Origin: Gammaproteobacteria bacterium | Lineage (GTDB): Bacteria > Pseudomonadota > Gammaproteobacteria > Ga0077536 | Reading direction: 5' to 3' | Assembly (NCBI GenBank): GCA_963662545.2 | Contig: CAXXLL010000002.1 | Location: forward strand, 608,001 to 672,000 | DNA: 64,000 nucleotides | Part shown: positions 4,977-57,750 of the stretch, in pieces | Layout of the letters: each line of letters begins with the position of its first letter | How positions within the stretch are numbered: the first letter of the stretch is position 1 | Made by a program: the position numbers and the translations under genes | The notes under the pieces: model-generated | The model's database searches: none | What the model was told of the DNA's origin: nothing | What the model saw: only the letters and a program-made list of their open reading frames with translations

Positions 4977-5110
4977 ATGATCGCTATGGGTCGATAGCCG
5001 CCTCCTCGCGGCAGCGCAGCACCTTTCCAAATCACGTCTGCAATGCGCTCATAAGCGGTCGACAAGTTCCCTGAAGCGTCGAGTCGAGAGGGTACGGCTG
5101 CAGTCGGCCA
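4977..5110 (+). repeat. tripartite palindromic repeat, copy R1 (third palindrome interrupted by element E1; resumes at 7607)
   Basis: GATCGCTATGGGTCGATAGCCGCC / ACGTCTGCAATGCGCTCATAAGCGGTC / GGCTGCAGTCGGCCA|TGAGCGGTC. Confidence 0.85.
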
Positions 5111-5246
5111 GGGGACGAAACCGCTATCGCGGTAGTGGTTAGCGAGGTCGTGGCGGAGTTGTAGTCAGTTCAGTTAGCAAGATGGGCCCTCCCTGTGTTG
5201 AGGTTGTTATCGCCAAACAACGACCAACAACACAGGAGACAAGCCC

Positions 5247-6131
5247 ATGACCCAGTCTAACAAAACCATCAGCCCGTTGTACGTCAACGCATGATCGACG
5301 ACATGACGTTGCGTCAGCTGCAGGAGAAAACGCAGACCGGATATCTGCGTTCCGTCAAACGCTTGACGAAGTTTCTGGGTCGCTCGCCGGATACGCGCGT
5401 CAGCCGAAGACCTGCGCGCGTTTCAAAAACAGTTGGTTGAACACGGCGCGTCGAGCGCGACCATCAATGCCACGATCCGCGGTCTACGGTTCTTCTTCGA
5501 GACCACCTTGGAACGCCCAGCGGCACTCAAACGGATGAGTCCGGTGCGGGTGCCGGAGCGCTTGCCGGTAGTCTTGAGCGTTGCAGACGTCACCCGCTTA
5601 CTAGACGCCGCGCCCAATCTGAAGTCGAAAGCCGCGCTGTCGGTGGCCTACGGTGCCGGCTTATGCGCCAGCGAAGTCTGCCACCTCAAAATCACCGACA
5701 TCGACAGTGAACGGATGATTATCCGGGTCGAGCAGGGTAAAGGTTCGCGCGACCGTCAAGCGATGCTCTCGCCCGCTTTGTTAGGTTTACTGCGCGCTTG
5801 GTGGCGCGACGGTCATCGCCGCGGCAAGATGCTCCCCAAGGGTTGGCTGTTCCCCGGCAGGGATCCCGTTGACCCGCTCTCACCTCGTCAACTCAATCGC
5901 ATGTGTCACTTCGCCGCGGCCACCGCCGAGTTGGATAAACAGATCTCCATGCACACCCTACGCCACAGTTTCGCGACGCACTTGCTCGAACAGCAGATCG
6001 ATATCCGGGTCATCCAGGTATTACTTGGCCACAAGAAGCTGACCACCACGGCGCGCTATGCCCATGTCGCAACGAAGGTGTTGAGCGACGTACAAAGTCC
6101 CCTCGACCGACTGAGCTTACCGACGCCGTAA
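5247..6131 (+). pseudogene. tyrosine recombinase, frameshifted
   Basis: Homologous to 19660-20541; +2 and +1 indels near 5280 and 5395; catalytic R changed to C (AGLCASE); [13 protein letters not shown] retained. Confidence 0.85.
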
Positions 6132-6132
6132 C

Positions 6133-7289
6133 GTGGCGCGGCCACCGCTCGAGGTGGCAGATATTTTTAGACGCGACGGCGCGACCTGGCGTCAAGCGCA
6201 TGCCGGTCATATCAGCCTCGGCCAACTCAAGGTCATGTCTGCCATCGAACACTGCCGCACCGAGGCGCTCGGCGGGCACCTGTTGCATTGCGAGCCGTGC
6301 GATGCAGAGCGTATTGCCTATAACTCGTGCAGGAACCGCCATTGTCCGAAATGTCAGGGACGTAAAGCAGCGCAATGGCTCGAACACCGTCAAGCAGAGC
6401 TGTTGCCGGTCGCGTATTACCATATCGTGTTCACCCTACCCGCACTGATCGCCGAGTTTGCCTATCAGAATAAAGCCGTGGTCTATGACCTGCTGCTTCA
6501 GAGGTGTCTGCTGCAACGCTCTCCACCATCGCCGCCGATCGCAAACACCTGGGCGCCCAGATCGCAATGACCTCGGTGTTGCATACCTGGGGCTCGGCAC
6601 TCACCCATCATCCGCATGTCCATTGCATCGTGCCCGGCGGCGGACTCGATGGCGAGACCTGGGTGCCGTGCAAACGGGGGTTCTTCCTGCCGGTACGGGT
6701 GTTGTCGCGACTGTTCCGGCGCTTGTTTCTGGAGCGGCTCCACCAGGCACACCGTGACGGGCAGCTACACTTCTGCGGTGACTTGGCGACTCTCGCCAAC
6801 CGCGCATCGTTCGACCAGTATCTGGCACCATTGGCGCAAACGGATTGGTTCGTCTACGTCAAACAACCCTTTGCCGGACCCCAAGCGGTGCTGGCTTATC
6901 TGTCGCGCTACACCCACCGCCTCGCCATCTCCAACCATCGGCTCATCGCCCATGATGCGCGTGGCGTCACCTTCCAATGGCAGGACTATCGCAGCAAACG
7001 CCGGGTGCGCTACCAACCCATGACGCTCGCCACCGATGAGTTCATCCGGCGCTTCCTGAACCACGTCTTACCCAGGGGCTTCCATCGCATCCGTCATTAC
7101 GGCTTGCTCGCCAATCCGGTGCGACGCGATAACCTGGCCCGCTTGCGCCGAGCACTCGATATGCACCACGAGCCCGACGTCGAAACACAACCAATTACGA
7201 CACCTTCGCCGACCTTCGTGTGTCGAACCTGTGGCGCGCCCTTACAGATCGTCGAGATCCTAAACCCGAGAACTCGGTCACCGCCATGA
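6133..7289 (+). pseudogene. IS91-family (Y2/HUH) transposase, frameshifted near 6500
   Basis: Zn finger SCRNRHCPKCQ in ORF 6133-6570; HPHVH, YLSRY and GFHRIRHYG in ORF 6504-7289. Confidence 0.88.
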
Positions 7290-7689
7290 CATCGGCTTCT
7301 ACTGACAACAATGACAGGCAGCACGCAGCGGTGTTGGCGATCTCTTATTGCCTCAGCCGTGGCAGACACCCGAACCGCGCGATCAAAACCAACCGATCAC
7401 TCGCTAAAACCGCTCTCAAAAGCATCGATAGCGCCGACATCGGACTTCGAATCGCCGCGCACCACCACACCGTCGACCCACTGCCCTAAACAATCCCCAT
7501 AGCCACGCCCCGCGGTTTCCTCCCCTGGGCGTTATCGAACACCCGCCTCAACGCTGTCGCAGAACCGCGCCCTTGTGCCGTTGCGGGTGTCCAATAACCC
7601 TAACCATGAGCGGTCATAAACATGAAGCGACGAGTTTCTACTCTCACTCCCCACATTCTGGATCGCTGAAACTTCCGACACATGAACGC

Positions 7690-8377: not shown

Positions 8378-8510
8378 AAGTCCTAATTGGGTCGTCAGCA
8401 GCCTCATCGCGACAGCGCAACACTGCTCTGGATTACGTCTGCAATGCGCTCGTAAGCGGTCGTCGCGCCAGCTTAATATTCGCTACGAGCGCTGAGTTCC
8501 GCTCGTGGCC
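8378..8510 (+). repeat. tripartite repeat, copy R2
   Basis: GTCCTAATTGGGTCGTCAGCAGCC / ACGTCTGCAATGCGCTCGTAAGCGGTC / TTCCGCTCGTGGCC, followed by an IS1182-IR-like GAGGCTGCGTC. Confidence 0.8.
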
Positions 8511-8939: not shown

Positions 8940-10916
8940 TCACTCATCGCGCCCTGTCCCTGCCTTGAAGCCCCGTAACCAGGCACTCGCCTCGCTCGCC
9001 AGGGTCCAACGATCGTCCGGGCCGAGGCCGTCGGGCCCAAAACGGTAACGCTGGTGCAGTTCGGCGAGGCGGCGAAGCGCTGCTGCATCGACCTCGGCGC
9101 CGAAACGGGCGGCGGCGCGTTCAATCCATGCGTGCATCGGTTCGTCGCCGCGCCGCCGGGCGCCGGCGGTCTGAAGCCGCTGCTCGATCTGGTAGAACTC
9201 CGAATCCGCACCCGGCCAGACGGTTCGCGCCGCCACGGCGGACCGCCGGCGGCCAGTGCGCCGGTGCCACAAGAACCACGCGGTGAGCGCGCACGCCATC
9301 GACGCAGCGCCGTAAGACACCCGCCGCGTCGCGATCCCGAACTGCGGCATCTCCCAGGTCCGCCAGCCATACAGCAACCACGAGAAGAGATCGCCGAGCG
9401 GCTCTAACAGCGAGGCGGTCTCATCCTCGACCGTGACCCAGATCGGCGGCGTGGTGTCGACGTCGATCCAGACGCCGTCGATGTAGGCGCGCGCCCAGGC
9501 ATGTGCATGGCGCTTGCGCACGACATAGCCTTCATCAACCAGGCGCCGCTCCTGCACTGAGAAGCCGGTCGCGTAGCGAGCCGGTATACCGGCCGCGCGC
9601 AGCAGGAGGGTCGTCGCGGTTGCAAAGTACTCACAGTGCCCGGCGCGCGAGACCTCGAGGAAGTGGCGCAGCGCCCCGCCCTCCGCTTCGATCGGTCCCT
9701 GGTAGAGCGAGTATGCGAAGCCCTCGAAGAAGTAACCGCGGATGGCTTCGAGGGCGGCACTCGGAGACATGGCATCGAGACCGAGATCCCGGACCACCAG
9801 CGAGAAGAGCGCACGATCGCCTTTGGTGAGATCGCGATCTTGCACAGTCGGTGCCGCCGTGAACGATCGGCCCGGTGATGCGATGGCGGTATAGGTGACT
9901 GTCCCCGCAGCGTCGTGCGCCTCGACCGCGCCGAGCGGATTACGCTTCAGCTGCCCGACCAGTAAACCTTCCACACGGTGGGTCCCGCTCGGCAGCGACA
10001 GCACGCCGACACGGCCCTTGAGATACTCGGAAATCGACACCGCCGATCCGCCGGCTGCGCCGTTCGCGATCTGCCAGGTAGCTTCATCCTCGCCGTGCGG
10101 CACGGATTCGAGTGCCGCGTCGCGCGCATTCCAGTTGCCGTACCGGTACTCGTTGTAGCTCGCCCGGTGCAGCAGTCGCGGCCGAATCTCGGGTCCGAGG
10201 TATTTGACGCGGAGTAGGATCTTGTCCGAAAGCTTGAGTTTGCCGATGTGGCCGATTTCGGTGCGGGTGCGGTAGGGATCGGTGCGCGATCCGGATATAT
10301 TGACGAGGTTCGCCCCCAGCGAAACGATGGTTGCCTGCAGCGCGCTGAGCCCGAGGTGGCCGGCATAGCCCAGGGCGACCGCGACCACAATGAGCGCCGC
10401 CCATGCGAGACCCGCGTACTGCCGCGGCCGCCTCGTCCACAACGCCCCGGTGACGAGCAACGCAAGGCCCGGGTAGAACCACACCGAGTACTCGTAGACG
10501 GCACTGCCCGCGAGCAGGCACACGGCGAAATACGGAAACTCGAGCCTGAAGCTGCGCCCGGATGTGGCGCTGGGTAAACGCCTCAGCAAAGGCAGTGCAT
10601 AGAGCGGCACACTGCCGCGCCGCGACAGGCCCTGAGCGACGAGGAGCGGCGCCAGCACTACGGGCAGCCACTGCACCAGTCGGATGATAGCGTCGCGCAT
10701 CGCGAGCGCGGTCAGCAGATACACCGCGAGGCCGAGTACGGCGAGCACACACGCCATGCCGATGCGGCGGAAGTGCTCATCAGATACATCGACGTTCGGG
10801 CTGGTCAGGCGCGGCCCGATCACGGCGAGGACGAGCACCGCGGCGAGCGGTAGCAACGTCGTCTGATAGCCCCAGAACAGGATCGCGCCCCCGAGCAGGA
10901 TCGAGGCCGCCGTCAC
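8940..10916 (-). CDS. membrane transglutaminase-like domain protein (DUF3488/TgpA-like)
   Basis: N-terminal TM helices; GHCEYFATA, GIPARYATGF, HAHAW and DTTP motifs. Confidence 0.9.
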   Translation of the reverse strand: MTAASILLGGAILFWGYQTTLLPLAAVLVLAVIGPRLTSPNVDVSDEHFRRIGMACVLAVLGLAVYLLTALAMRDAIIRLVQWLPVVLAPLLVAQGLSRRGSVPLYALPLLRRLPSATSGRSFRLEFPYFAVCLLAGSAVYEYSVWFYPGLALLVTGALWTRRPRQYAGLAWAALIVVAVALGYAGHLGLSALQATIVSLGANLVNISGSRTDPYRTRTEIGHIGKLKLSDKILLRVKYLGPEIRPRLLHRASYNEYRYGNWNARDAALESVPHGEDEATWQIANGAAGGSAVSISEYLKGRVGVLSLPSGTHRVEGLLVGQLKRNPLGAVEAHDAAGTVTYTAIASPGRSFTAAPTVQDRDLTKGDRALFSLVVRDLGLDAMSPSAALEAIRGYFFEGFAYSLYQGPIEAEGGALRHFLEVSRAGHCEYFATATTLLLRAAGIPARYATGFSVQERRLVDEGYVVRKRHAHAWARAYIDGVWIDVDTTPPIWVTVEDETASLLEPLGDLFSWLLYGWRTWEMPQFGIATRRVSYGAASMACALTAWFLWHRRTGRRRSAVAARTVWPGADSEFYQIEQRLQTAGARRRGDEPMHAWIERAAARFGAEVDAAALRRLAELHQRYRFGPDGLGPDDRWTLASEASAWLRGFKAGTGRDE

Positions 10917-12223
10917 AGCGCAGCCAGCCCCTGCTGGATGTCGGCGGTGCGCAGCACGTGCAGCGACCCCGCGTCCGGTTCTATCTCGATGTCGGCGTCG
11001 CTGATCACCAGAACCTTGAGCGGCAGGCCGCGCGCCTGTAGGTCGTCGACGATGTCGCGGCGCGGCGTGTCCCAGCGCAGCAGGATGAGGATGCAGCTGC
11101 TGAGGACGGCGAGGCGTTCGAGCACGGCCTCGTGTAGCTCGCGAAAAGGCTTGTCCGTGCAGGCCTCGACGCCGGCCAGGATCTCGAGCATGCCGACGGC
11201 GTGCAGCTGGCCAATCCCCGCGGTGAAGGTGTAGGCCTCGGCGCCGACGAACATGAGGTCGAGCAGGTTTTCCTGCGTCTCGATGGTACAGGCGAACGAC
11301 GCGGCGACGGCCACGGCTTCCTCGAAGACGGTCTCCTCGTGGACGGCCGAGAAGGTGTCGAGCACCAGTGCGTGGCGTTCGAAGAACTCGTCTTGATATT
11401 CCTTCACGACCGGCCGGCCGACCCGCGCGAAGCTCTTCCAGTGGATCTTCTGCAGCGGATCGCCCGCGCGGTAATCGCGCAGACCCACGAACTCCTCGGT
11501 ATCGCCCTTCGAGGCCGCTAGCGTGACGCCGCCATGCTGGTAGATCCGTGTTCCCGGCAGTTCGAGTTCGGGCAGCGCATAGCGTTTCGGGAGAACCAGC
11601 AGGGAACCCTTGAGCGGCGCGCGCGAAAGCGCGTAGAAGATTCCGAGCGGATCAGACTTCGCCAGGGCCACGGCGTCGAACTCAAGGATCCCGCGGTGGG
11701 ACGGGGTGAGCTCGTATTTAATATCGACGTCGTCACCGGGGCCGAGGATGCCGATCGGGCAGGGCTTCGTCTCCGCCACCTGCCTGCGCGAGAGCAGCGC
11801 GCGCCAGCGGGCGAGCACGGACGCGCGCGGGGCGTCGCCGCCTTTCGTCTGACGAAACTCCGCGTAGGTCGGGCGCGGGTCGATGAGCTCGTCGACGAGA
11901 GCGAGCGAGGTGTGCGCGGTCTGATCGTCGTTGTGCACGCGGATGCGGTAGCTCACCGGCTCGCCGATGGTGGCAAAGGGCGGCAGCTCGCGTGTGGCAT
12001 GGAAGCGCGTTCGCAAAAATAGCTGCGCAACGAACGCAACGAAAATGACCGACGCGATGAGCGTGAAGATCTGATAGGCCAGCGTGAGTTCGGTATCGAT
12101 TCCTATCGCAGCCGTGACCAGCAGGCCCGCGAAGAAGAACCGCCCTGTCACCGTGAGGCGCCGCCGCGCCCACGGGTTGACGCCAGAAATAAAGCGCAAA
12201 AGCCGGTACGTCAGCGCCTGCAT
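10913..12223 (-). CDS. DUF58 domain protein
   Basis: EFVGLRDYRAGDPLQKIHWKSFAR motif; located between MoxR and the transglutaminase gene. Confidence 0.9.
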   Translation of the reverse strand: MQALTYRLLRFISGVNPWARRRLTVTGRFFFAGLLVTAAIGIDTELTLAYQIFTLIASVIFVAFVAQLFLRTRFHATRELPPFATIGEPVSYRIRVHNDDQTAHTSLALVDELIDPRPTYAEFRQTKGGDAPRASVLARWRALLSRRQVAETKPCPIGILGPGDDVDIKYELTPSHRGILEFDAVALAKSDPLGIFYALSRAPLKGSLLVLPKRYALPELELPGTRIYQHGGVTLAASKGDTEEFVGLRDYRAGDPLQKIHWKSFARVGRPVVKEYQDEFFERHALVLDTFSAVHEETVFEEAVAVAASFACTIETQENLLDLMFVGAEAYTFTAGIGQLHAVGMLEILAGVEACTDKPFRELHEAVLERLAVLSSCILILLRWDTPRRDIVDDLQARGLPLKVLVISDADIEIEPDAGSLHVLRTADIQQGLAAL

Positions 12224-12240
12224 GGGATGGTCCCGTCGCG

Positions 12241-13200
12241 TCAGGCCGGGAGCGGGTGTTCGTCCATGAGATCCTCGAGGATCGCCTCCGACGATCGACC
12301 CGAGAACCGTGATTTTGGATCGACCGCCATGCGGTGCGCGATAACGGGCGCGATCATCTCACGCAGGTGATCGGGCATGACGAAATCCGACCCGTCGATC
12401 AGCGCCAGCGCCCGCATCGCGTTGAAGAGCGCAATGGATGCACGCGGACCCGTTCCCATCTGCACCGACGCATGCTCGCGGGTCGCCCGCACGATCGACA
12501 CCGCGTAGCGCTGCAGCTCCTCGCTGATGTGGACGTCGCGTACGGCCGATTTCAGCGCCACCACGTCCTCGACCGAGACACAGGCGCCAAGCGCATCGAG
12601 CGGGTGTGAACGCGCCTGCCCGGTGACGACCGCGAGCTCCGCATCAAAGTCGACGTAGCCGAGACTCAGACGAATAGCGAAGCGGTCCATCTGTGCTTCC
12701 GGCAACGGGTAGGTGCCGCGGAACTCGACCGGATTCTGAGTGGCGATCACGAAGAAGAGGTCAGACAGCTGATAGGAGCGCCCCTCGACGCTGACCTGAC
12801 CCTCAGCCATGGCTTCGAGCAGCGCGGATTGCGTCCGCGGCGACGCACGGTTGATCTCGTCGGCGAGGAGGATATCGGTAAACACGGGGCCTTCGCGAAA
12901 ATTGAAGACCTGCTCGCGCGGGTCGAAAACCGAGACGCCGAGGATGTCGGAGGGCAGCAGATCGGGCGTGAACTGCACCCGCTTAAAGCCGGCGCCGACC
13001 GACTTGGCGAGGGCCTTGGAGAGCGTAGTTTTGCCGGTGCCCGGGTAGTCTTCCAGAAGCACGTGACCGCCGCTCGCGAAGGCGGCCACGATCTTGCGGA
13101 GGGATGCGGTCTGGCCGGTGATAACGGTCTCGACGTTAGCAATGATCTTGGCGGCGATTAGCTGTGCCGTCTGAATCGTCGTCGCGGTTGTGTCGTCCAT
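12241..13200 (-). CDS. MoxR-family AAA+ ATPase
   Basis: GHVLLEDYPGTGKT, RVQFTPDLLPSD, LADEINRA, ATQNP and YPLPEAQMDRF motifs. Confidence 0.95.
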   Translation of the reverse strand: MDDTTATTIQTAQLIAAKIIANVETVITGQTASLRKIVAAFASGGHVLLEDYPGTGKTTLSKALAKSVGAGFKRVQFTPDLLPSDILGVSVFDPREQVFNFREGPVFTDILLADEINRASPRTQSALLEAMAEGQVSVEGRSYQLSDLFFVIATQNPVEFRGTYPLPEAQMDRFAIRLSLGYVDFDAELAVVTGQARSHPLDALGACVSVEDVVALKSAVRDVHISEELQRYAVSIVRATREHASVQMGTGPRASIALFNAMRALALIDGSDFVMPDHLREMIAPVIAHRMAVDPKSRFSGRSSEAILEDLMDEHPLPA

Positions 13201-13246: not shown

Positions 13247-13440
13247 GGTGTCGGAGTTGACTTATTTGACTAACATATAGCCGTATTGGCGCCGCCTATC
13301 CTAGTATCCTAGGGGGCAAACCACGTTTTACACGGTGCCGCGCGTTTTCACGGTCCCGACAGCGGCCCGGCGCTCTTAGTCAATTAAGTCAATTCCGGCA
13401 CGCAATTCTCGTTCAAGTCAATTAAGTCAACTCCGGCACC
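13247..13440. repeat. REPIN/MITE-like element with ~25-bp inverted repeats (right arm present twice)
   Basis: GGTGTCGGAGTTGACTTATTTGACT at 13247; AGTCAATTAAGTCAA(T/C)TCCGGCAC at about 13378 and 13416. Confidence 0.7.
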
Positions 13441-14387
13441 CGATTCCTATCACCGAAGACGAGACGTAGCCCAAAATCGCCCAACGATTACCAAGAAAAT
13501 CCAACCATGGATATGTCAAGCGCAGACGAATGGAAGCGCCTACAGGCCGATATAGAAATAGCCCGGCAAGTCATTATTGCCCTGCGCTGGCTGATGGAAG
13601 ATACGGCGCCACAGTCATCGATGGATGCGAGTGGGGAGGTGTTGGATAGGCTGGGTGAGTATTCGCCAACTCGTGCTGGTGCGTAATACGAACCATCGCA
13701 AAGGCGGCGAGCTGCTAAAGGCGAATGGGTTTGGTGTACCCGGATCTATTTATCGCCAGAAAAATCCAACCGATCTCGCAGTTTTTCAAGTTCCGGCTTC
13801 ATAAGCTCGCATCTCCGAGCGTATGGAGTCCTTCCTTTCCTTGGTTTTGCAAGATCGGAAATGGATTGAAGTGCGGTGAACATAATCAGAGCGGTTTCCC
13901 ACAACTTGTGCTCGATAGAATCGAGATTCGGCAATATGTTGATGGACATTGGAAATCCATCATCGCCATATGACACGCTGTCTTCTAAATGTTGCAAATT
14001 TGCGTGTACAGCATTGCTGTAGACGTTGTAATACAAATAGAGTCTGGGCACCTCGCCCACTCTGGCGTCTTGCTATCGAAAAACAAAAGCGACACATGCG
14101 TCGGATTGGAAAAGCGCCGTTACGGCGTTTTCAGTATGTGGGGACGTGGAAAGATTTACCACGTCAACCGACACGAAAGGCTACCCCGTAATGGCCCCAA
14201 ATCACCCCTATTCACCCCACCCCACCGAGACATCCACCCCGACCCAGGAGTAACCCCCACCCTGTCCTGATTAGGCCGATACGCACCCCGAAATAGGGGC
14301 TTTCTGGAGATTAATTACCGGCTACGCAATTCGGCGAGTGTAAAGAATCCTAGAAAATCGGGCAGCGGAGCGATTTATTGCCATAGA

Positions 14388-15239: not shown

Positions 15240-15538
15240 GATGTCTGTTCAGGGTCCAGACTGTGTGAAAACTCAATAATACGACGCCGAAAGTAAAAAA
15301 TTCCCCACCAGCATAGTAGTTAAGCACCATGAAAAGGGATCAGCACATCGCATTAATCCACTTCCGAGTGTCGGTTCCCCACTTTTGAAAAACGCAAATA
15401 GTTTTCACACAGTCTGGGTCGTTAGCCGCCGCCTCGCGGCAGTGCAGCACTGGTAATAGTTACGTCTGCAATCCCCTCGTAAGCGGTCGTCCTGTTGTTT
15501 TAAGTGTCGCGCTCCAAGCCCATTTCGGCTTTCGGCCA
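15240..15538 (+). repeat. tripartite repeat, copy R3 (MITE in first palindrome; E2+E3 in third; resumes at 21839)
   Basis: GATGTCTGTTCAGGGTC[MITE]GGTCGTTAGCCGCC / ACGTCTGCAATCCCCTCGTAAGCGGTC / TCGGCTTTCGGCCA|GGAGCGGTC. Confidence 0.85.
15257..15416. mobile_element. 160-bp IS1182-type MITE
   Basis: Perfect IRs CAGACTGTGTGAAAACT / AGTTTTCACACAGTCTG; 4-bp TSD GGTC. Confidence 0.88.
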
Positions 15539-16263
15539 GAGGACTAAACCGCTCGCGCGGTAGGGGGAGGTTTCACCAGGCGTTAGCGATGGATTGACGG
15601 GAAGGGTCTGTCCCGTGTTGATGTTGGTTTGCGACATGCAACTCAACACAAGGAACAGACCCATGACCCAGAACAAGCATTCTATCAGCCCGTTGCGTCA
15701 ACGCATGCACGACGACATGCGCCTTCGTAAGCTCTCTGAGAAAACACAGACAGCCTATATCCGTGCGGTCAAGAATTTCACCCGCTTTCTCGCCCGTTCT
15801 CCCGACACCGCCGGTAGCGAAGACCTGCGGCGTTATCAACTTCACATGGTCTCCACCGGCGTGTCTCGCACGACCATCAACGCCACCATCACCGGTTTGC
15901 ACTTTTTCTTTGAGATCTCCCTCGAGCGGCCCGATGCGATGAAACGGATGAGTACCGTGCACGTGGAACGTAAGCTCCCGGTGGTCTTGAGCGGTGAGGA
16001 AGTTGCGCGCCTGTTACAAGCCGCGCCCGGCATCAAGTACCAGGCGGCGTTGTCGCTCGCCTATGGCGCCGGCCTTCGCGCCGGCGAGGGAGTCATGCTG
16101 AAAGTCACCGATATTGACCGTGAGCGCAAGCTCCTGCGCGTCGAGCAGGGTAAGGGACGCAAGGACCGCTACGCTATGCTCTCACCGACCTTGCTCAAGG
16201 TGTTGCGCACCTGGTACCGCAGCGCTGCATCGCAGGGCAAGATGTGGCCCCACGGCTGGCTAG

Positions 16264-17649
16264 GAGTTATAACTGAATCTGGTGTTTGAGCGAATTGAAT
16301 AAAGGCGGCGTATCTGGTTGAAATGTTGTTACCAAGCAGCAAGCCAACCAAAGAGGATACGCCACCATGAGAGAGAGTAACGTTGTTGAATTATCAGGTC
16401 GAGAAGGAATACCAGATCCGTTGACGGAGGTTTTGAGAAACGGTGCACGGGCGCTGATTGAGCGAGCAGTTGAAAGCGAGCTGGCAGAGTATTTGGCGCA
16501 GTATTCAAGCCATCGCACGGCGGACGACAAAGCAGGTGTGGTTCGCAACGGCTATTTGCCGGAACGCCAGTTGCAGACGGGCTTGGGGACGGTCACGGTC
16601 AGGATACCGAAGGTTCGTTCGAAGCTCGGCGAGCCGGTGACCTTCCGTTCAGCGCTGGTGCCGCCGTATGTGCGCAAGACAAGAACCTTGGAGGCGGCCG
16701 TGCCGTGGCTGTATTTGAAGGGCGTTTCCAGTGGCGAAATGGGCGCTGCGCTGGAAGTTTTGTTGGGGCCGCAGGCGAAGGGCCTGTCGGCGAGCACAGT
16801 GTCGCGCTTGAAGCAGGTGTGGGCGCAAGAATACCGCGACTGGTGCGAGGGGCGATTGGACCAAGACCGCTGGGTGTAGGTGTGGGCGGACGGTGTCTAC
16901 AGTGGCCTGCGGGCGGAGCACACGAAGCTGTGTGCGTTGGTGGTGATCGGCGTCAATGAGCGAGGCGAGAAGCGTTTTTTGGCGATGGAGGATGGTGTGC
17001 GGGAGTCCACGCAGAGCTGGCGCGAGGTGTTGCTGAAATTGAAGTCACGCGGGATGAATATTCCCAAGCTGGCGATCGGGGACGGTGCCATGGGCTTCTG
17101 GGCCGCACTGGAGGAAGTCTACGGTGAGACCCGCCAGCAACGCTGCTGGATGCACAAGACGATGAACGTGCTGAACTGCCTACCGAAGTCAGCACAGGCC
17201 AAAGCCAAGCAAGCCCTGCACGCGATCTGGCAGGCCGCGACAAAGGCCGACGCCGAGAAGGCGTTCGAGCTGTTCCTCAAGACCTATGAACCGAAGTATC
17301 CCAAGGCGACCCTGTGCCTACAGAAAGACCGTGAGGAGTTGCTGGCGTTCTATGATTTTCCGGCACCACATTGGCAAAGCATTCGCACGAGCAATCCGAT
17401 TGAATCCACCTTCGCTACGATCCGGCACCGGACCCGGCGCTCCAAGGGCGGTCTCTCTCGGGACGGCATGCTCCATATGATGTTCAAGCTGGGGCGGTGT
17501 GCGCAGAAGAATTGGCGACGCCTACGTGGATTCGACTACCTGGCCAAGGTGATTACTGGAGTTAAATTTGAAGATGGTATCGAGGTGACAAGGGTCAATC
17601 AGGTCGCCGCTTGATTCAACCGCCTGAACACCACTTTTGACAATAACTC
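16264..17649 (+). mobile_element. IS256-family element, copy 1
   Basis: IRs GAGTTATAACTGAATCTGGTG / CACCACTTTTGACAATAACTC; 9-bp TSD CGGCTGGCT (two extra bases on the left). Confidence 0.92.
16367..17614 (+). pseudogene. IS256 transposase with an in-frame TAG at 16877-16879
   Basis: RNGYLPER, RWV*VWADG, IGDGAMG, QRCWMHK and RTSNPIES motifs. Confidence 0.88.
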
Positions 17650-17963
17650 CGGCTGGCTGTTCCCGGGGCAGAACCCCGTCAACCCTCTGACCACCCGCCA
17701 GCTCAACCGGGCCTGTCATGCGGCGGTGGACCTAGCGACCATCGATAAGCGCGTGTCGCTGCATACGCTGCGCCATTCATTCGCAACTCATTTACTCGAG
17801 CAGGGGGTCGACATCCGTGTGATCCAGGTGCTGCTCGGACACCAGAAGCTCGAGACCACCGCGCTGTACTCCCAGGTCGCCATGCGCACGCTTCGTGAGG
17901 TCGTGAGCCCACTGGAACATCTCACCCTGGAGTTGAGACCGCCCGCCTGACCCGGCGGGTGAG

Positions 17964-19157
17964 GTGTCTCGGCAACCGCTCGAGGTCGCGGATATCTTCC
18001 GCGCCTACGGTCCGGCTTGGCGTCATGCGCACGCCGGACACCTCAGTCTCGGGCAGCTGAAGGTCATGTCGGCCATCGAGCGCTGTCGTAGCGCAGCGCT
18101 CGGCGGCCACGTTGTGCACTGCGACGCCTGTGACCACATCGAGATCGCCTACAACTCCTGCCGTAACAGGCACTGCCCGAAGTGCCAGGGCGCAGTGGCC
18201 AGGCAATGGCTTGCCGCGCGCGAAGCCGAGCTGCTACCGGTCGCGTACTTCCACGTCGTGTTCACGGTGCCGGCAGAGATCGGCAACCTCGCCTATCAGA
18301 ACAAGGCCGTTATCTACAACCTCTTATTCAAAGCCGCCGCCGAGACCTTGCTCACCATCGGGGCCGATCCCAAACACCTCGGGGCACGCCTGGGGCTCAC
18401 CGCCGTGCTGCATACCTGGGGCTCGGCCATGACCCATCATCCCCATCTGCACTGCATCGTGCCTGGCGGCGGGCTCTCGCTCGACGGCGTGCGTTGGCTC
18501 GCCTGTCGGCCCAACTTCTTCTTACCGGTGCGGGTGCTCTCGCGGTTGTTCCGACGCCTGTTCCTCGGCCAGCTGGGTGAACTCCACGCGGGCGGACAGT
18601 TGGCCTTCTTCGGCCAATACCAGGGACTCGAAGACCCGCACGCCTTCGCCGAGTTCCTCACTGCGTTGCGTAAACGCGAGTGGGTCGTTGATGCCCGCCC
18701 GCCCTTCGCCGGACCCGCCGCGGTGCTCGAATACCTCGCCCGATATACCCACCGCGTCGCCATCGCTAACTCGCGTCTCATCACCTTCGACCAACAACGC
18801 GTGAGCTTCAAGTGGAAGGACTATCGCGCCCAGCAGGAGAACCGCTACAAGACCCTGTCGCTCGAGACCGGCGAGTTCATCCGCCGCTTCCTCATCCACG
18901 TCCTACCCCACGGCTTCCATCGCATTCGCCATTACGGGTTGTTCGCAAACGGCGGGCGCACCGAGAACCTCGCAAAGGTCCGCGCTCTGCTCGGCATCGA
19001 GACATCCCAAGATGTCAACGACAACGACAACACTGATGAGGCGACACCCGACTGGCTACGCTGTCCGTCCTGTGGAGGTGCGATGCACATCATCGACACC
19101 TTCGAGCCCGGTCACGCGCCCTGTGCACCACCGCACCGCGGAGGCGACCCACCTTGA
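17964..19157 (+). CDS. IS91-family (Y2/HUH) transposase, intact
   Basis: 397 aa; SCRNRHCPKCQ, HPHLH, YLARY, GFHRIRHYG and C-terminal CPSCG. Confidence 0.93.
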   Translation: MSRQPLEVADIFRAYGPAWRHAHAGHLSLGQLKVMSAIERCRSAALGGHVVHCDACDHIEIAYNSCRNRHCPKCQGAVARQWLAAREAELLPVAYFHVVFTVPAEIGNLAYQNKAVIYNLLFKAAAETLLTIGADPKHLGARLGLTAVLHTWGSAMTHHPHLHCIVPGGGLSLDGVRWLACRPNFFLPVRVLSRLFRRLFLGQLGELHAGGQLAFFGQYQGLEDPHAFAEFLTALRKREWVVDARPPFAGPAAVLEYLARYTHRVAIANSRLITFDQQRVSFKWKDYRAQQENRYKTLSLETGEFIRRFLIHVLPHGFHRIRHYGLFANGGRTENLAKVRALLGIETSQDVNDNDNTDEATPDWLRCPSCGGAMHIIDTFEPGHAPCAPPHRGGDPP

Positions 19158-19659
19158 CCCTCGACCGTTCGAACTCGCCAGCCCACCAGCCCACAAATCG
19201 CCGCTTTACCACCGGCAACGTTACCGTCTTGCTTGGCGCCGTGACGAGACCACATAGCGGTACCGATCCCGCTCCTCAACGTCCGGTCACCCACCCACCT
19301 CATTGCACGCTGACCCGTTCTTGCCCGACACACCGCTTGCCGTTGGCTACCGATCATATCAATCCGAACAACGCCACCCTCAAATCCCCATAGCACCGTG
19401 CCGACCAACGCGCCGGCGTTCTTCTCCCGCGGTTTCCTCCCTTGAGGCTTGTCAGACGCCTGCCCCCACCCTCTCGACCCAGTCCGTCCACTGTCTACGG
19501 CAGGCATCTGACAACCCTTAACAGAGGACGAAACCGCTATCGCGGTAATGGTCGGCGAGGTTGTGGCGGAGGTGTTGTAAATTGAGTTAGCAAAATGGGC
19601 TCACCCTGTGTTGAGGTTGTTATCGCCAAACAGCAACCAGAAACACAGGAGATAAGCCC

Positions 19660-20541
19660 ATGACCCAGTCTAACAATTCCATCAGCCCGTTGCGTCAACG
19701 CATGATTGATGACATGACCTTGCGTCAGCTCCAGGAGAAAACGCAGAGCGGCTATCTGCGCTCGGTGAAGCGCTTGACGAAGTTTCTGGGTCGTTCACCC
19801 GATTCGGCGTCAGCCGAAGACCTGCGCGCGTTTCAAAAACATCTGGTGGACCAGGGGGTATCGAGCGCGACCATCAATGCGACGATCCGCGGACTGCGGT
19901 TCTTCTTCGAGACCACCCTGGAGCGCCCGCAGGTACTGAAACGGATGAGTCCGGTGCGTGTGCCGGAGCGCTTGCCGGTGGTCTTGAGCGTGGCAGACAT
20001 CACCCGCTTATTGAACGCTGCCCCCGATCTGAAGTCGATGGCGGCGCTGTCGGTGGCCGATGGTGCCGGGTTACGCGCCAGCGAAGTCTGCCACTTGAAG
20101 ATCACCGACATCGACAGCGAACGGATGCTTATCCGAGTGCAACTCGGCAAAGGTGCTCGAGATCGACAAGCGATGCTCTCGCCGGCCTTGTTGCAACTAC
20201 TGCGCGCCTGGTGGCGCGAGGGTCATCGCCGCGGCAAGATGCTCCCCAATGGCTGGCTGTTCCCCGGCGTTGACCCGGTCGACCCCCTCTCGACACGCCA
20301 ACTCAATCGAATGTGTCATTTCGCTGCGGCGACGGCCGCGCTGGAGAAACGGCTCTCCATGCACACCTTACGCCACAGCTTCGCGACACATTTGCTCGAG
20401 CAGCGGGTCGATATCCGGGTCATCCAAGTCTTACTCGGCCATAAGAAGCTGACCACCACCGCACGCTACGCCCATGTCGCGACCCAGACCTTGAGTCAAG
20501 TACAAAGTCCTCTGGACCGGTTGAAGTTACCCAAGCCGTAG
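19660..20541 (+). CDS. tyrosine recombinase (XerD-like, N-terminal SAM-like domain; no IntI-specific insertion)
   Basis: 293 aa; GLRASE (R), GKGARDR (K), HTLRH, LLGH and TTARY catalytic residues. Confidence 0.92.
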   Translation: MTQSNNSISPLRQRMIDDMTLRQLQEKTQSGYLRSVKRLTKFLGRSPDSASAEDLRAFQKHLVDQGVSSATINATIRGLRFFFETTLERPQVLKRMSPVRVPERLPVVLSVADITRLLNAAPDLKSMAALSVADGAGLRASEVCHLKITDIDSERMLIRVQLGKGARDRQAMLSPALLQLLRAWWREGHRRGKMLPNGWLFPGVDPVDPLSTRQLNRMCHFAAATAALEKRLSMHTLRHSFATHLLEQRVDIRVIQVLLGHKKLTTTARYAHVATQTLSQVQSPLDRLKLPKP

Positions 20542-20542
20542 C

Positions 20543-21521
20543 GTGGCGCGGCCACCGCTAGAGGTGGCAGACATTTTCAGACGCGACGGCCAGACCTGGC
20601 GTCAGGCGCACGCCGGACATATCAGCCTGGCTCAACTCAAGGTCGCGTATTACCACGTCGTGTTCACCTTACCGGCACTGATCGCCGATCTCGCTTACCA
20701 GAATAAGGCCGTGGTCTATGATTTGCTGTTCAAGGTCTCTGCGGAAACACTCGCCACCATCGCCGCCGATCGCAAACACCTGGGTGCCCAGATCGGAATG
20801 ACCTCGGTGTTGCATACCTGGGGCTCGGCACTCACCCATCATCCGCAGGTCCACTGCATCGTCCCCGGGGGCGGACTCGATGGCGAGACCTGGGTGCCGT
20901 GTAAACGCGGGTTTTTCCTGCCGGTACGGGTGTTGTCGCGACTGTTCCGGCGTCTGTTCCTACAACGGCTCCACCAGGCACACCGTGACGGGCAGCTACG
21001 TTTCTTCGGTGACCTGGTGCATCTCGCCAACCCGACATCGTTCAACCGATACCTGGCGCCACTGGCGTAAACGGAGTGGTTCGTCTACGTCAAACAACCC
21101 TTTGCCGGGCCCCCAAGCGGTGCTCGCTTACCTGTCGCGCTACACCCACCGGGTTGCCATCTCCAATCATCGGCTCATCGCCCATGATGAACGCGGCGTC
21201 ACCTTCCAATGGAAGGACTATCGCACCAAACATTGTGTCCGATACAAACCCATGACGCTCGTCACCGATGAGTTCATCCGCCGCTTCTTGACCCACGTCT
21301 TACCCAAGGGGTTCCATCGCATCCGTCATTACGGCTTGTTCGCTAATCCCGTGCGACGCGATAACTTGACCCGCTTACGTCGAGCACTCGACACCCACGA
21401 CGAGCCCGACGTCGAAACAGAAACGATGACGGCGTCTTCACCGGCGTTCGTCTGTCGAATCTGTGGGGCGCCCTTGCAGATTGTCGAGATCCTCACCCCG
21501 AACATGAGAGCACCACCATGA
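20543..21521 (+). pseudogene. IS91-family transposase with an in-frame deletion, a TAA stop and a frameshift
   Basis: Compared with E1: Zn-finger region missing at 20644; CAA changed to TAA at 21068; +1 near 21110. Confidence 0.88.
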
Positions 21522-22131
21522 CGCCGGCTCCTACGACAAGCATGACCGGCAGCACGCAACAGCGTCGGCGAGCGCCTATTGCCTCAACTGTGTCAAACAC
21601 TCGAGCCGCCCCTTCAAAAGCCAACGACTACGCTAGAAAACGGCGCTCCCACCCATCGATGACGCCAGCATCCGACTCGAAAACGCCGCACACAACGACT
21701 TCTACGACCCGCTGCCCCCAACAATCCCCATAGCCACGCCCCCGCGGTTTCCTCCCCTGGGCGTTATCGAACACCCGCCTCACTGCCGTCACAGACCCTC
21801 ACCCTCGTGCCGTTGCGGGTGTCCAATAACCCTAACCAGGAGCGGTCTTGGTATTTGTCGTAAGGCCATGCAGCGTGAAGGCTTCGTGTTCCGGGCGGGG
21901 TCCCATGGCGATGCAGTCGTTGACGGAGCTGTCGAGGACCTGTGCGAGGCCATCGTCGTCGTGCGGTTCGAGGGCGAGATAGGTAGTATCCAGAGCGCGA
22001 ACCAACAGACCTGCACGTTCGAGGTGCTACCCCACCCGTTCGCTCAGGGTAAGCACGCGAAAAAGAACTCCACGAACTCGCGCACGCAATTCTCTGAGCG
22101 AAAAAGTGGTTTGCCTCTGGAATCAGACGTT

Positions 22132-23404: not shown

Positions 23405-23550
23405 CGACGACCGCTTGGGGTCGGCAGCTGCCGAATCGCCGCAGTGCAACACCTGTAAGCATTACGTCTGCAGTCCCCTCGTAAGCGGTCGTGCAGTAGC
23501 GTTCAGTGGTGCGACTGTGGAGGGCGGCGGCTTACAGCTAGAAGCGGACG
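23405..23550 (+). repeat. tripartite repeat, copy R4 (uninterrupted)
   Basis: GACCGCTTGGGGTCGGCAGCTGCC / ACGTCTGCAGTCCCCTCGTAAGCGGTC / GGCGGCTTACAGCTAGAAGCGGAC. Confidence 0.85.
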
Positions 23551-24899: not shown

Positions 24900-25148
24900 A
24901 AGTCTGCTACGGGTCCAGACTGTGTGAAAACTCAAAAATACGACGACGAAATAAAAATATTCCCCACCAGCATAGTTGTTATGCCCCTCGAATAGGGATC
25001 GGCATTTCAATTAGATCCAATTTCGAGGGTAGTTCCCCCACTTTTGAAAAATGAAAATAGTTTTCACACAGTCTGGGTCGTGAGCGGTCTGATCGCGGCA
25101 GCGCAGGACTGTTCTGGGTCATGTCCGGAATACCCTCAGAAGCGGTCA
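24900..25148 (+). repeat. repeat copy R5 (first two palindromes; MITE in the first)
   Basis: AAGTCTGCTACGGGTC[MITE]GGTCGTGAGCGGTC / ATGTCCGGAATACCCTCAGAAGCGGTC. Confidence 0.82.
24916..25075. mobile_element. 160-bp IS1182-type MITE
   Basis: Same IRs as 15257-15416; TSD GGTC. Confidence 0.88.
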
Positions 25149-25982: not shown

Positions 25983-26066
25983 AATAACTGGGGGTCGTCA
26001 GCGGCCTGATCGCGGCAGCGCAGCACTAGTCTAGATTACGTCTGCAATACCCTCGTAAGCGGTCGT
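25983..26066 (+). repeat. repeat copy R6 (third palindrome degenerate)
   Basis: GGGGTCGTCAGCGGCC / ACGTCTGCAATACCCTCGTAAGCGGTC. Confidence 0.82.
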
Positions 26067-26233
26067 CCAACGACAATTAGTGGAGCGTTAACGAAGCACT
26101 CCGGTAAACCCATGCACTGGCGGTTTCGAAACTGGCCGTGCCCGCTCGGTTCTATCGTCGTCAAGCGCGGTCGCGAATGAGCCAGGGAGTGGCTAAGATC
26201 GGTGTCCGTCTATTCAGAGCCAAGGGAGGTCCC

Positions 26234-57606: not shown

Positions 57607-57750
57607 AGGTCCGCAAAGGGTCGTCACCCGCCTAATCGCGGCACTGCAGCACTTCTCAAGGTTACGTCTGCAATGCGCTCGTAAGTGGTCGTCGAGGTCC
57701 CTCAAGCGTCGAGTCGAGAGGGTACGGCTGCAGTCGGCCACAAGCGGCCA
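57607..57750 (+). repeat. tripartite repeat, copy R11 (uninterrupted; empty counterpart of R1)
   Basis: GTCCGCAAAGGGTCGTCACCCGCC / ACGTCTGCAATGCGCTCGTAAGTGGTC / GGCTGCAGTCGGCCACAAGCGGCC. Confidence 0.87.

Follow-up and report, generated by a model that had tools for sequence, protein, structure and literature searches.

Here we describe three related mobile elements in a 64,000-nucleotide (nt) stretch of a gammaproteobacterial genome (lineage Ga0077536; assembly GCA_963662545.2, contig CAXXLL010000002.1, positions 608,001 to 672,000; hereafter the window), and a long hairpin predicted where two of them meet. The elements, designated E1 (5111-7606), E2 (15539-19523), and E3 (19524-21838), all lie on the + strand and share a gene layout in which a tyrosine recombinase (TR) gene is directly followed by a gene for an HUH Y2 transposase. 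The TRs contain PF00589 and a SAM-like N-domain (PF13495), and the transposases contain the IS91 zinc-binding domain (Zn_Tnp_IS91) and Y2_Tnp, with matches to PF04986 (Y2_Tnp; E 4.5e-65) and PF14319; the intact transposase of a sister copy scores 429.5 bits on the NCBIfam IS91 model NF033538 (cut-off 125). By transposase type and by their two unlike ends, E1 to E3 are IS91-family insertion sequences. E2 is ~68% identical to E3, and E3 ~85% identical to E1. All three window copies are damaged, and intact copies are found elsewhere in the genome (L001 and L003 of the E2 type, L002 of the E1 type). Rfam at gathering thresholds gave no family match anywhere in the window.

Element boundaries were fixed by comparing copies with different flanks, which places the last nucleotide of E2 at 19523, followed by GA and by the GGAC of E3 from 19526. 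E1 opens with the dinucleotide GG and GGAC at 5113 and has its right end at 7606; both of its genes are broken. E2 opens with GA and GGAC at 15541 and ends in ...CCCTTAACA; its TR gene is interrupted by an IS256-family (Mutator-type) insertion sequence (~16264-17650, + strand) that has ~20 copies elsewhere in the genome, and its transposase gene (17964-19157, + strand) encodes 397 amino acids (aa) with the IS91 zinc-binding domain and Y2_Tnp. E3 opens with GA and GGAC at 19526 and ends in ...CCCTAACCA. Its TR gene (19660-20541, + strand, 293 aa) is intact, the catalytic residues R-K-H-R-H-Y being invariant in a three-sequence alignment; its transposase gene (20543-21521, + strand) is split into overlapping open reading frames (ORFs; 20543-21070 and 20880-21521), with the zinc-binding part mostly gone. 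A small palindrome, ACCGC-TATC-GCGGT, lies at the left (terIS-side) end of E3 (19531-19547, + strand). At the right end of E1 (7512-7606, - strand), a module consisting of an unpaired subterminal 12-mer, GCGGTTTCCTCC, and an inner hairpin was recognized, and E3 has a module of the same build (21744-21838, - strand).

The E2/E3 junction lies within a hairpin spanning 19429-19537, which folds best on the bottom (-) strand. Its outer helix pairs 19429-19440 (GCGGTTTCCTCC, running on to ...CTGCC at 19464) with 19526-19537 (GGACGAAACCGC), and its inner helix pairs ~19441-19464 with 19499-19523 (GGCAGGCATCTGACAACCCTTAACA, followed by GA at 19524-25), leaving a loop at 19465-19498. Folded as single-stranded DNA (ssDNA), the + strand reaches -24.5 kcal/mol (z -4.11) and the - strand -32.6 kcal/mol (z -6.87), with 0 of 200 shuffles as good on either strand. 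The ~110-nt imperfect hairpin that a sequence-only reading of this DNA had placed here is thus present, with its arms where that reading had them. Its attribution to joined element ends holds for the outer 12 base pairs (bp), which need both ends, but not for the inner stem, which lies wholly within the right (oriIS-side) end of one element. E1 and E3 carry GCGGTTTCC from 7512 and 21744, respectively, complementary to the left ends ...GGACGAAACCGC (GGAC at 5113 in E1 and 19526 in E3), a relationship claimed earlier that can be read directly from the bases. The inner arm of these two elements, GTTATCGAACACCCGC / GCGGGTGTCCAATAAC, and that of E2 do not have the same sequence. Since E2 and E3 are only ~68% identical, the window junction is a head-to-tail tandem of two different elements, without being a circle joint.

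The inner stem was assessed in an alignment of 60 right ends (bottom strand, 24-pair stem, 500 shuffles). Standard pairs account for 87.0% of cells, versus 79.9% in shuffles, and the covariation score is 0.284 versus 0.159, none of the 500 shuffles reaching the observed value in either case; 13 pairs are changed on both sides, a count reached by 1 of 500 shuffles. Registers slid by 1-3 columns are 29-49% paired. Covariation among homologs, named in the sequence-only reading as the check on its fold, is therefore found in this stem. In distant families the inner stem is of unrelated sequence and the pairing is kept, as in TGAGGTCGCG/CGCGACCTCA and CGTTTTTAGCTT/AAGCTAAAAACG; consequently, the claim that structure is conserved over sequence, first drawn from the differing inner arms, holds well. 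As a separate observation, on one metagenome contig (L098, 5834-5860) the 5' arm repeats the 3' arm in inverted form; the resulting near-perfect palindrome suggests a head-to-head pair of right ends beside a left end.

For the outer stem, the right-subterminal 12-mer was compared with the first 12 nt of the left end in 58 main-family elements for which both ends were available, and 590 of 696 cells are Watson-Crick. Both 12-mers are near-invariant within the main family, so a test of this helix requires other families. Across 13 families, 8-11 of the 12 positions of the right-subterminal 12-mer are complementary to the left 12-mer, and in six loci scanned blind over a ~1.4-kb range the best complement always lies ~95-100 nt before the right end (10-11 matches, versus 8-9 for the runner-up). 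The Novosphingobium locus (L160) was excluded from the blind scan, no left-end motif having been found in it, and the Vibrio campbellii locus (L151), whose outer helix uses other bases (GTTCAACAA/TTGTTGAAC) and is ambiguous, was excluded from the 13-family count. Numbering positions in the right-subterminal 12-mer as R and in the left end as L, four position pairs covary with compensatory pair types: R4/L7 (T-A, G-C, C-G), R7/L4 (C-G, A-T, or C.T), R8/L3 (G-C or C.C), and R10/L1 (C-G, T-A, and, in three, C.A, a bottom-strand wobble). A rhizobial family has a longer outer helix, with 15 complementary positions out of 17. Together these substitutions indicate that the two element ends co-evolve.

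Strand preference was compared in eight natural joints, namely that of the window and seven distinct joints from metagenomes. In all eight, the bottom strand folds better by 6-10 kcal/mol (-28.7 to -40.0 kcal/mol, z -4.3 to -7.7, versus -19.8 to -34.0 kcal/mol, z -1.5 to -4.9, for the top strand). RNAalifold returned one long stem for the eight bottom strands, with 33 pairs, 5 of them showing compensatory changes, and an internal loop at the joint. In the inner stem, 158 cells wobble on the bottom strand only, versus 68 on the top strand only, and a hand tally of the per-pair rows of the upper stem, in which a few positions dominate, gave 107 bottom-strand G.T versus 10.

An exact-pattern scan of metagenome contigs identified 12 in which a left end comes after a right end. 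In 11 of these, ...AAC and GGAC... are separated by 3 nt and in one by 4 nt; the window junction has the same form (AAC-AGA-GGAC). Direct overlaps between the contig termini, with a period of 2533-2586 nt, occur in five of the 12; since this period equals one element length, these five are circles or tandems. Two contigs are tandems of 89-90% identical copies, like E2/E3. Unitigs of four public runs compared with an intact copy contained zero right-to-left joints, which says nothing either way, since contigs cannot show rare circles. A truncated tandem was seen in genome G021 (L110 and L113), where a right end directly abuts a second copy starting at element position 177, inside the TR gene.

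A scan of one genome per species, with the alignment of three recombinases as query, confirmed 427 relatives, and 80 loci were kept. An IS91-type transposase gene comes next on the same strand in 74 of the 75 loci that continue for 600 nt or more past the TR gene, and a profile of three right ends located the same module in 67 loci. A match is present in 711 plasmid records, and the hits include replicons of nodule bacteria and Burkholderia-group species. The same gene pair occurs in sampled plasmid copies down to 37% recombinase identity (including Sinorhizobium, Bradyrhizobium, and Clostridium) and in a Vibrio copy with a 36.7% identical transposase. Classical IS801/IS1294/IS91-type transposases are 24-28% identical to the transposase of these elements, and the one classical-type locus inspected has a small ORF upstream of the transposase gene, where the recombinase would be. 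A literature search found no paper on these ends, the fold, or the role of the TR, with subscription-journal and ISfinder texts, where a description may exist, thinly covered. A different gene order is present on an Acinetobacter pittii plasmid (L166), where the gene for a shorter TR relative (35.7% identity, 84% query coverage) is found next to an annotated tet(X3) and downstream, not upstream, of an ISVsa3-type IS91-like transposase gene.

Insertion sites were likewise compared. Two repeat families provide the insertion sites in the source genome, the elements being located at the 3' ends of the repeats; E1 lies at the 3' end of a copy of repeat D3 (4982-5110, + strand), and the E2/E3 pair at the 3' end, ...CGGCTTTCGGCCA, of another (15412-15538, + strand). 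The target logo of 36 distinct insertions reads AA-GnCnGCT-nn-SGGYC-RRA / element / nWAGCnGnC (SGGYC in 36/36), a 26-bp imperfect palindrome of the form GnCnGCT-N12-AGCnGnC. Occupied sites are 2 nt longer than empty ones in 12 of 12 comparisons with paralogous empty repeats, and at a true orthologous empty site, that of a distant family member on S. meliloti pSymA, the difference is the element plus 2 extra nt. Other comparisons are less informative about empty sites: the alignment of a genome of the same genus (G001) at the E1 site reaches only up to the repeat, and the two candidate empty sites retrieved for plasmid copies of the main family are surrounded by other insertion sequences.

A variable dinucleotide is present exactly once in every joint, and several simple origins for it were rejected. 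The dinucleotides on the left and on the right match in only 9 of the 36 insertions, so that there is no plain 2-bp target duplication, and the left is the reverse complement of the right in only 4 of 36 (counted by eye). Neither side is always inherited, as judged from 100% identical sister copies: the left dinucleotide is constant in G021 (5/5) and differs in all four identical G022 copies, and the right is constant in the E1 pair and varies in G021. Nor could the dinucleotide be fitted to a standard tyrosine exchange. It resembles the short coupling sequences of tyrosine-recombinase transposons such as Tn916 and CTnDOT.

Further observations were made at and around these sites. In L065 (...ACAACCCTTAACA AA GAACAACCCTTAACA...) and L008 (...ACGCTAACCA AT ACGCTAACCA...), a second copy of the final 10-15 nt of the right end lies just outside the element, perhaps left by an earlier copy or by imprecise processing of the end. 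D3 is a ~129-nt repeat with ~100 genome copies in co-oriented arrays, its 3' ends being preferred sites of IS91-type elements. Window copies lie at 4982-5110, 8385-8484, 15412-15538, 23414-23513, 25988-26087, 57612-57740, and beyond, and contig 2 has 32 copies between 612 and 748 kb, all on the + strand and spaced 1-7 kb apart, in a cassette-array-like layout. As attC candidates the D3 repeats were rejected, as they fold no better than shuffles (z -0.96 to +0.89); both D3 and a ~130-nt repeat are unlike the classical attC array of the host. Two 80%-identical units of ~180 bp (15243-15488 and 24902-25147), with inverted repeats GGGTCCAGACTGTGTGAAAACT / AGTTTTCACACAGTCTGGGTCGT, look like miniature inverted-repeat transposable elements, and one of them abuts the D3 copy beside E2.

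The recombinase is related to the integron integrase, IntI. On TIGR02249 (integron integrase) the TR scores 164 bits, versus a cut-off of 265, in two stretches, and it also matches the IntI4 structure 2a3v in two stretches, IntI being ~37 residues longer in pairwise alignment; the earlier statement that the recombinase lacks the IntI-specific insertion is thereby borne out. It scores 120-121 bits against the IntIs of its host, versus 97 and 81 bits against the host Xer proteins. Sequence comparison places the TR in the integron-like subgroup of tyrosine recombinases, a kinship already in print: a preprint (bioRxiv 10.1101/542381) describes this 'integron-like' subgroup as the closest relatives of IntI, without its insertion and found in IS91 elements. 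The host genome itself contains two genuine IntI genes (462 and 461 bits). The first belongs to a classical integron (contig 2, 985-997.7 kb) with at least 10 cassettes and ~105-nt attC sites (CCTAAC...GTTAGG), the cassette array with these sites spanning 985-995.5 kb. Around the second (contig 3, 1.527 Mb), only two short repeat pairs and no cassette-like array were seen within +/-22 kb.

The sequence-only reading had called the junction hairpin attC-like. There is a likeness in outline, in that both hairpins are ~100 nt long and imperfect, with a variable loop and structure kept over sequence, the bottom strand folds best (8/8 joints here), and the neighbouring recombinase is among the closest relatives of IntI. 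Among the differences, the motif order is reversed, 5'-GTTAAGG...CCTCGAGG-3' here versus 5'-CCTAAC...GTTAGG-3' in the host attC sites, such that on the bottom strand the 5' arm carries the GTT-purine block, reading inward, and RYYYAAC at the start of the 5' arm and GTTRRRY at the end of the 3' arm are absent. The bottom-strand GTTAAGG pointed out earlier at the junction is conserved in the main family but not in distant families, which have, for example, GTGAAGG, TGCAGAG, or GGAATCTGG. No R-box/L-box pair or extrahelical-base pattern was identified in the fold; mismatches that are conserved, and an internal loop situated at the joint, do exist but could not be mapped onto R/L boxes. Moreover, the element recombinase is without the extra helical insertion of IntI, and the fold spans both ends of a 2.5-kb element encoding its own HUH transposase. 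Because the box order is reversed and the GTT unconserved, we reject membership of the attC kind; the hairpin works at most 'like' an attC site. On a Vibrio campbellii plasmid (L151, 3571-4650), a distant TR and IS91-transposase pair ends just before GTTAGAT, followed by an annotated arr gene and a palindromic stretch, which looks as if this element stands at a cassette boundary.

A closer comparison is offered by IS91 itself, as described in a 2026 paper (PMC13181058). There, the palindromes of oriIS ends are subterminal and terIS has a single one next to the cut; single-stranded and double-stranded circles with juxtaposed ends both form, and insertion proceeds from a bottom-strand ssDNA circle with an oriIS-terIS junction by the transposase alone, IS91 having no such recombinase. 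An upstream, translationally coupled gene product, Orf121, sharpens terIS cutting and damps transposition (PMC13181058). The elements studied here share with the IS91/IS801/IS1294 group of HUH Y2 rolling-circle elements a transposase of the same family (NF033538), unlike ends with a subterminal palindrome downstream of the transposase gene and a small boundary palindrome upstream (ACCGC-N4-GCGGT at the left end), and an upstream gene translationally coupled to the transposase gene. The lack of a regular target duplication and a short, loose target motif abutting the right end (NWWG here, CTTG/GTTC in IS91) may be further shared features. The inner hairpin corresponds to the subterminal palindrome already described for oriIS ends of the family (PMC13181058), and the joined-end bottom-strand ssDNA circle, the active form in IS91, is presumed here, with indirect support from the folding bias towards the bottom strand and from the joined ends of the 12 contigs. 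The differences are that the transposases are only 24-28% identical, the upstream gene encodes a catalytically complete TR and not Orf121, the right-end palindrome is much longer (stem ~24 pairs, loop ~35 nt) and is preceded by a 12-17-nt segment complementary to the very start of the left end, and the target is a 26-bp imperfect palindrome with a variable dinucleotide accompanying each copy. Elements of the IS200/IS605 group (e.g., IS608) are also HUH elements that act strand-specifically on ssDNA, with subterminal hairpins, a circle junction, and insertion beside a short motif without duplication. They differ in having a single-tyrosine Y1 enzyme and small hairpins that are similar at both ends, and in lacking both a long inter-end helix and a recombinase.

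Since the right end corresponds to oriIS and the left to terIS, the bottom strand is favoured, and a coupled gene lies upstream, the hairpin is probably the folded oriIS-terIS junction of a bottom-strand intermediate in a TR-bearing subgroup of IS91 elements, the window copy being a tandem; we assign this reading a probability of roughly 0.6. As in IS91, the transposase would nick at the right end and peel off the strand complementary to the genes. The right end of the freed strand would fold at once into the inner hairpin, leaving the conserved 12-nt tail unpaired, and once the left end is released, after a further ~2.5 kb, its final 12 nt could pair with that tail and bring the termini side by side, like a nick in a long stem. 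The strand would then be closed to a circle and later opened for insertion. In the window, one element would have inserted exactly at the boundary of another, recreating the same fold. The TR may serve as an Orf121-like, coupled upstream helper for accurate left-end processing, or it may recombine the folded joint.

Several points weigh against this interpretation. Both the strand and the sequence of steps are borrowed from IS91, with its only 24-28% identical transposase, and the circle, the nick, and the strand are unobserved in the subgroup. Two adjacent mismatches of the outer helix are conserved in the main family (C.C in 53/58 and C.T in 48/58), which a plain helix would not need, and the covariation between ends could equally reflect one protein reading both ends as duplex DNA. 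The variable junction dinucleotide is not explained by a one-rule HUH cut-and-join. Finally, the TR keeps all of its catalytic residues, which argues that it performs chemistry somewhere, and a folded oriIS-terIS junction does not say where.

The latter two points bear on an alternative in which the folded joint is an attachment site of the TR. The HUH transposase would make a bottom-strand circle, and the hairpin, serving as a pseudo-duplex, would be recombined by the TR with the palindromic target through exchange of a single strand, after which replication would resolve the product, as with integron attC x attI or CTX-phage attP(+) x dif. In the CTX phage, a folded ssDNA attP(+) is recombined with dif by XerCD, and a hairpin in a single-stranded circle could in the same way serve an Xer-like recombinase without an IntI-type insertion; between the present stem and the target duplex, however, no likeness was found beyond C-N-[xy]-R-G, and no host dif-like site is involved. 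We consider this alternative possible but doubtful, and it is kept mainly because of the unexplained dinucleotide, which is neither a target duplication nor always inherited and whose flanks, C-N-[xy]-R-G, are shared by joint and target. It also gains from the invariant R-K-H-R-H-Y residues, the higher scores of the TR against host IntI than against Xer together with its integron-like placement (10.1101/542381), the linkage of TR and transposase genes in 74/75 loci and down to 37% identity, the variable loop, conserved mismatches, and strand bias of the hairpin, and the resemblance of GnCnGCT-N12-AGCnGnC to a two-armed core site. Yet the hairpin arms are unlike the target arms, the flanking bases segregate in a way that could be fitted to no simple two-strand or one-strand tyrosine exchange, and the variable stretch is just 2 nt, tyrosine recombinases being known for cuts 6-8 nt apart. 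Insertions exactly at the ends of resident elements, as in the tandems, fall at natural HUH nick sites. The TR is without the IntI insertion, and this insertion (the I2 helix) is credited, in the abstract of PMC7790495, with the move of IntI to single-stranded substrates; furthermore, IS91 inserts the same kind of ssDNA circle with the transposase alone (PMC13181058). A version with two enzymes in series, in which HUH makes the bottom-strand circle and the IntI-like TR recombines the folded joint into the palindromic target, leaving the dinucleotide as a 'coupling' sequence, strikes us as rather unlikely. If true, these elements would show, in living form, an Xer/IntI-type recombinase that acts on a folded ssDNA site of the element's own making, and integron attC recombination could have started from a state of this kind.

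It is also conceivable, if quite improbable, that no single-stranded fold is used, the 12-mers being ordinary terminal inverted repeats and the inner palindrome a duplex binding site for a dimeric protein (or a terminator). Both 12-mers are near-invariant in the main family, two sites co-evolving under one protein would also give 'compensatory' patterns, and WCCGC/GCGGW recurs in the left-end palindrome, the right-subterminal 12-mer, and both target arms, all as duplex recognition would have it. Duplex recognition sits poorly, however, with the bias of non-Watson-Crick cells towards bottom-strand G.T (107 versus 10 in the upper stem), with the greater stability of the bottom strand in 8/8 joints, and with the complete replacement of the stem sequence between families while pairing is kept; in addition, ssDNA is the substrate of HUH enzymes, and the form used by IS91 is an ssDNA circle (PMC13181058). 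A chance palindrome at a chance junction would be a natural suspicion from the single site in the window. It is ruled out for practical purposes by the shuffles (0/200 as good on either strand) and by the recurrence of the same architecture in 60 right ends, 13 families, and 12 independent joined contigs.

Relative to the IS91 scheme, the added feature of a folded oriIS-terIS junction is an inter-end helix that would align both termini like a nick in a stem. TR-bearing IS91-family elements are common (427 relatives in the genome scan and 711 plasmid records), and for these we provide exact ends, a covariation-backed fold needing both ends, a likely active strand, and a target consensus. These results turn the function of the TR into a question for the bench, and a strand-specific delivery assay already works for IS91. 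As the TR is among the nearest relatives of IntI, its role bears on the origin of the folded-single-strand recombination of integrons.

Two other features of the window were recorded. On the minus strand at 8940-13200, three tandem ORFs encode 658, 436, and 319 aa, a set that, from its layout alone, could be a recombinase-in-trio type element. At 13247-13446, there is a 25-nt inverted repeat (92% complementary, 144 nt apart) together with a 31-nt direct repeat containing AGTCAATTAAGTCAA.

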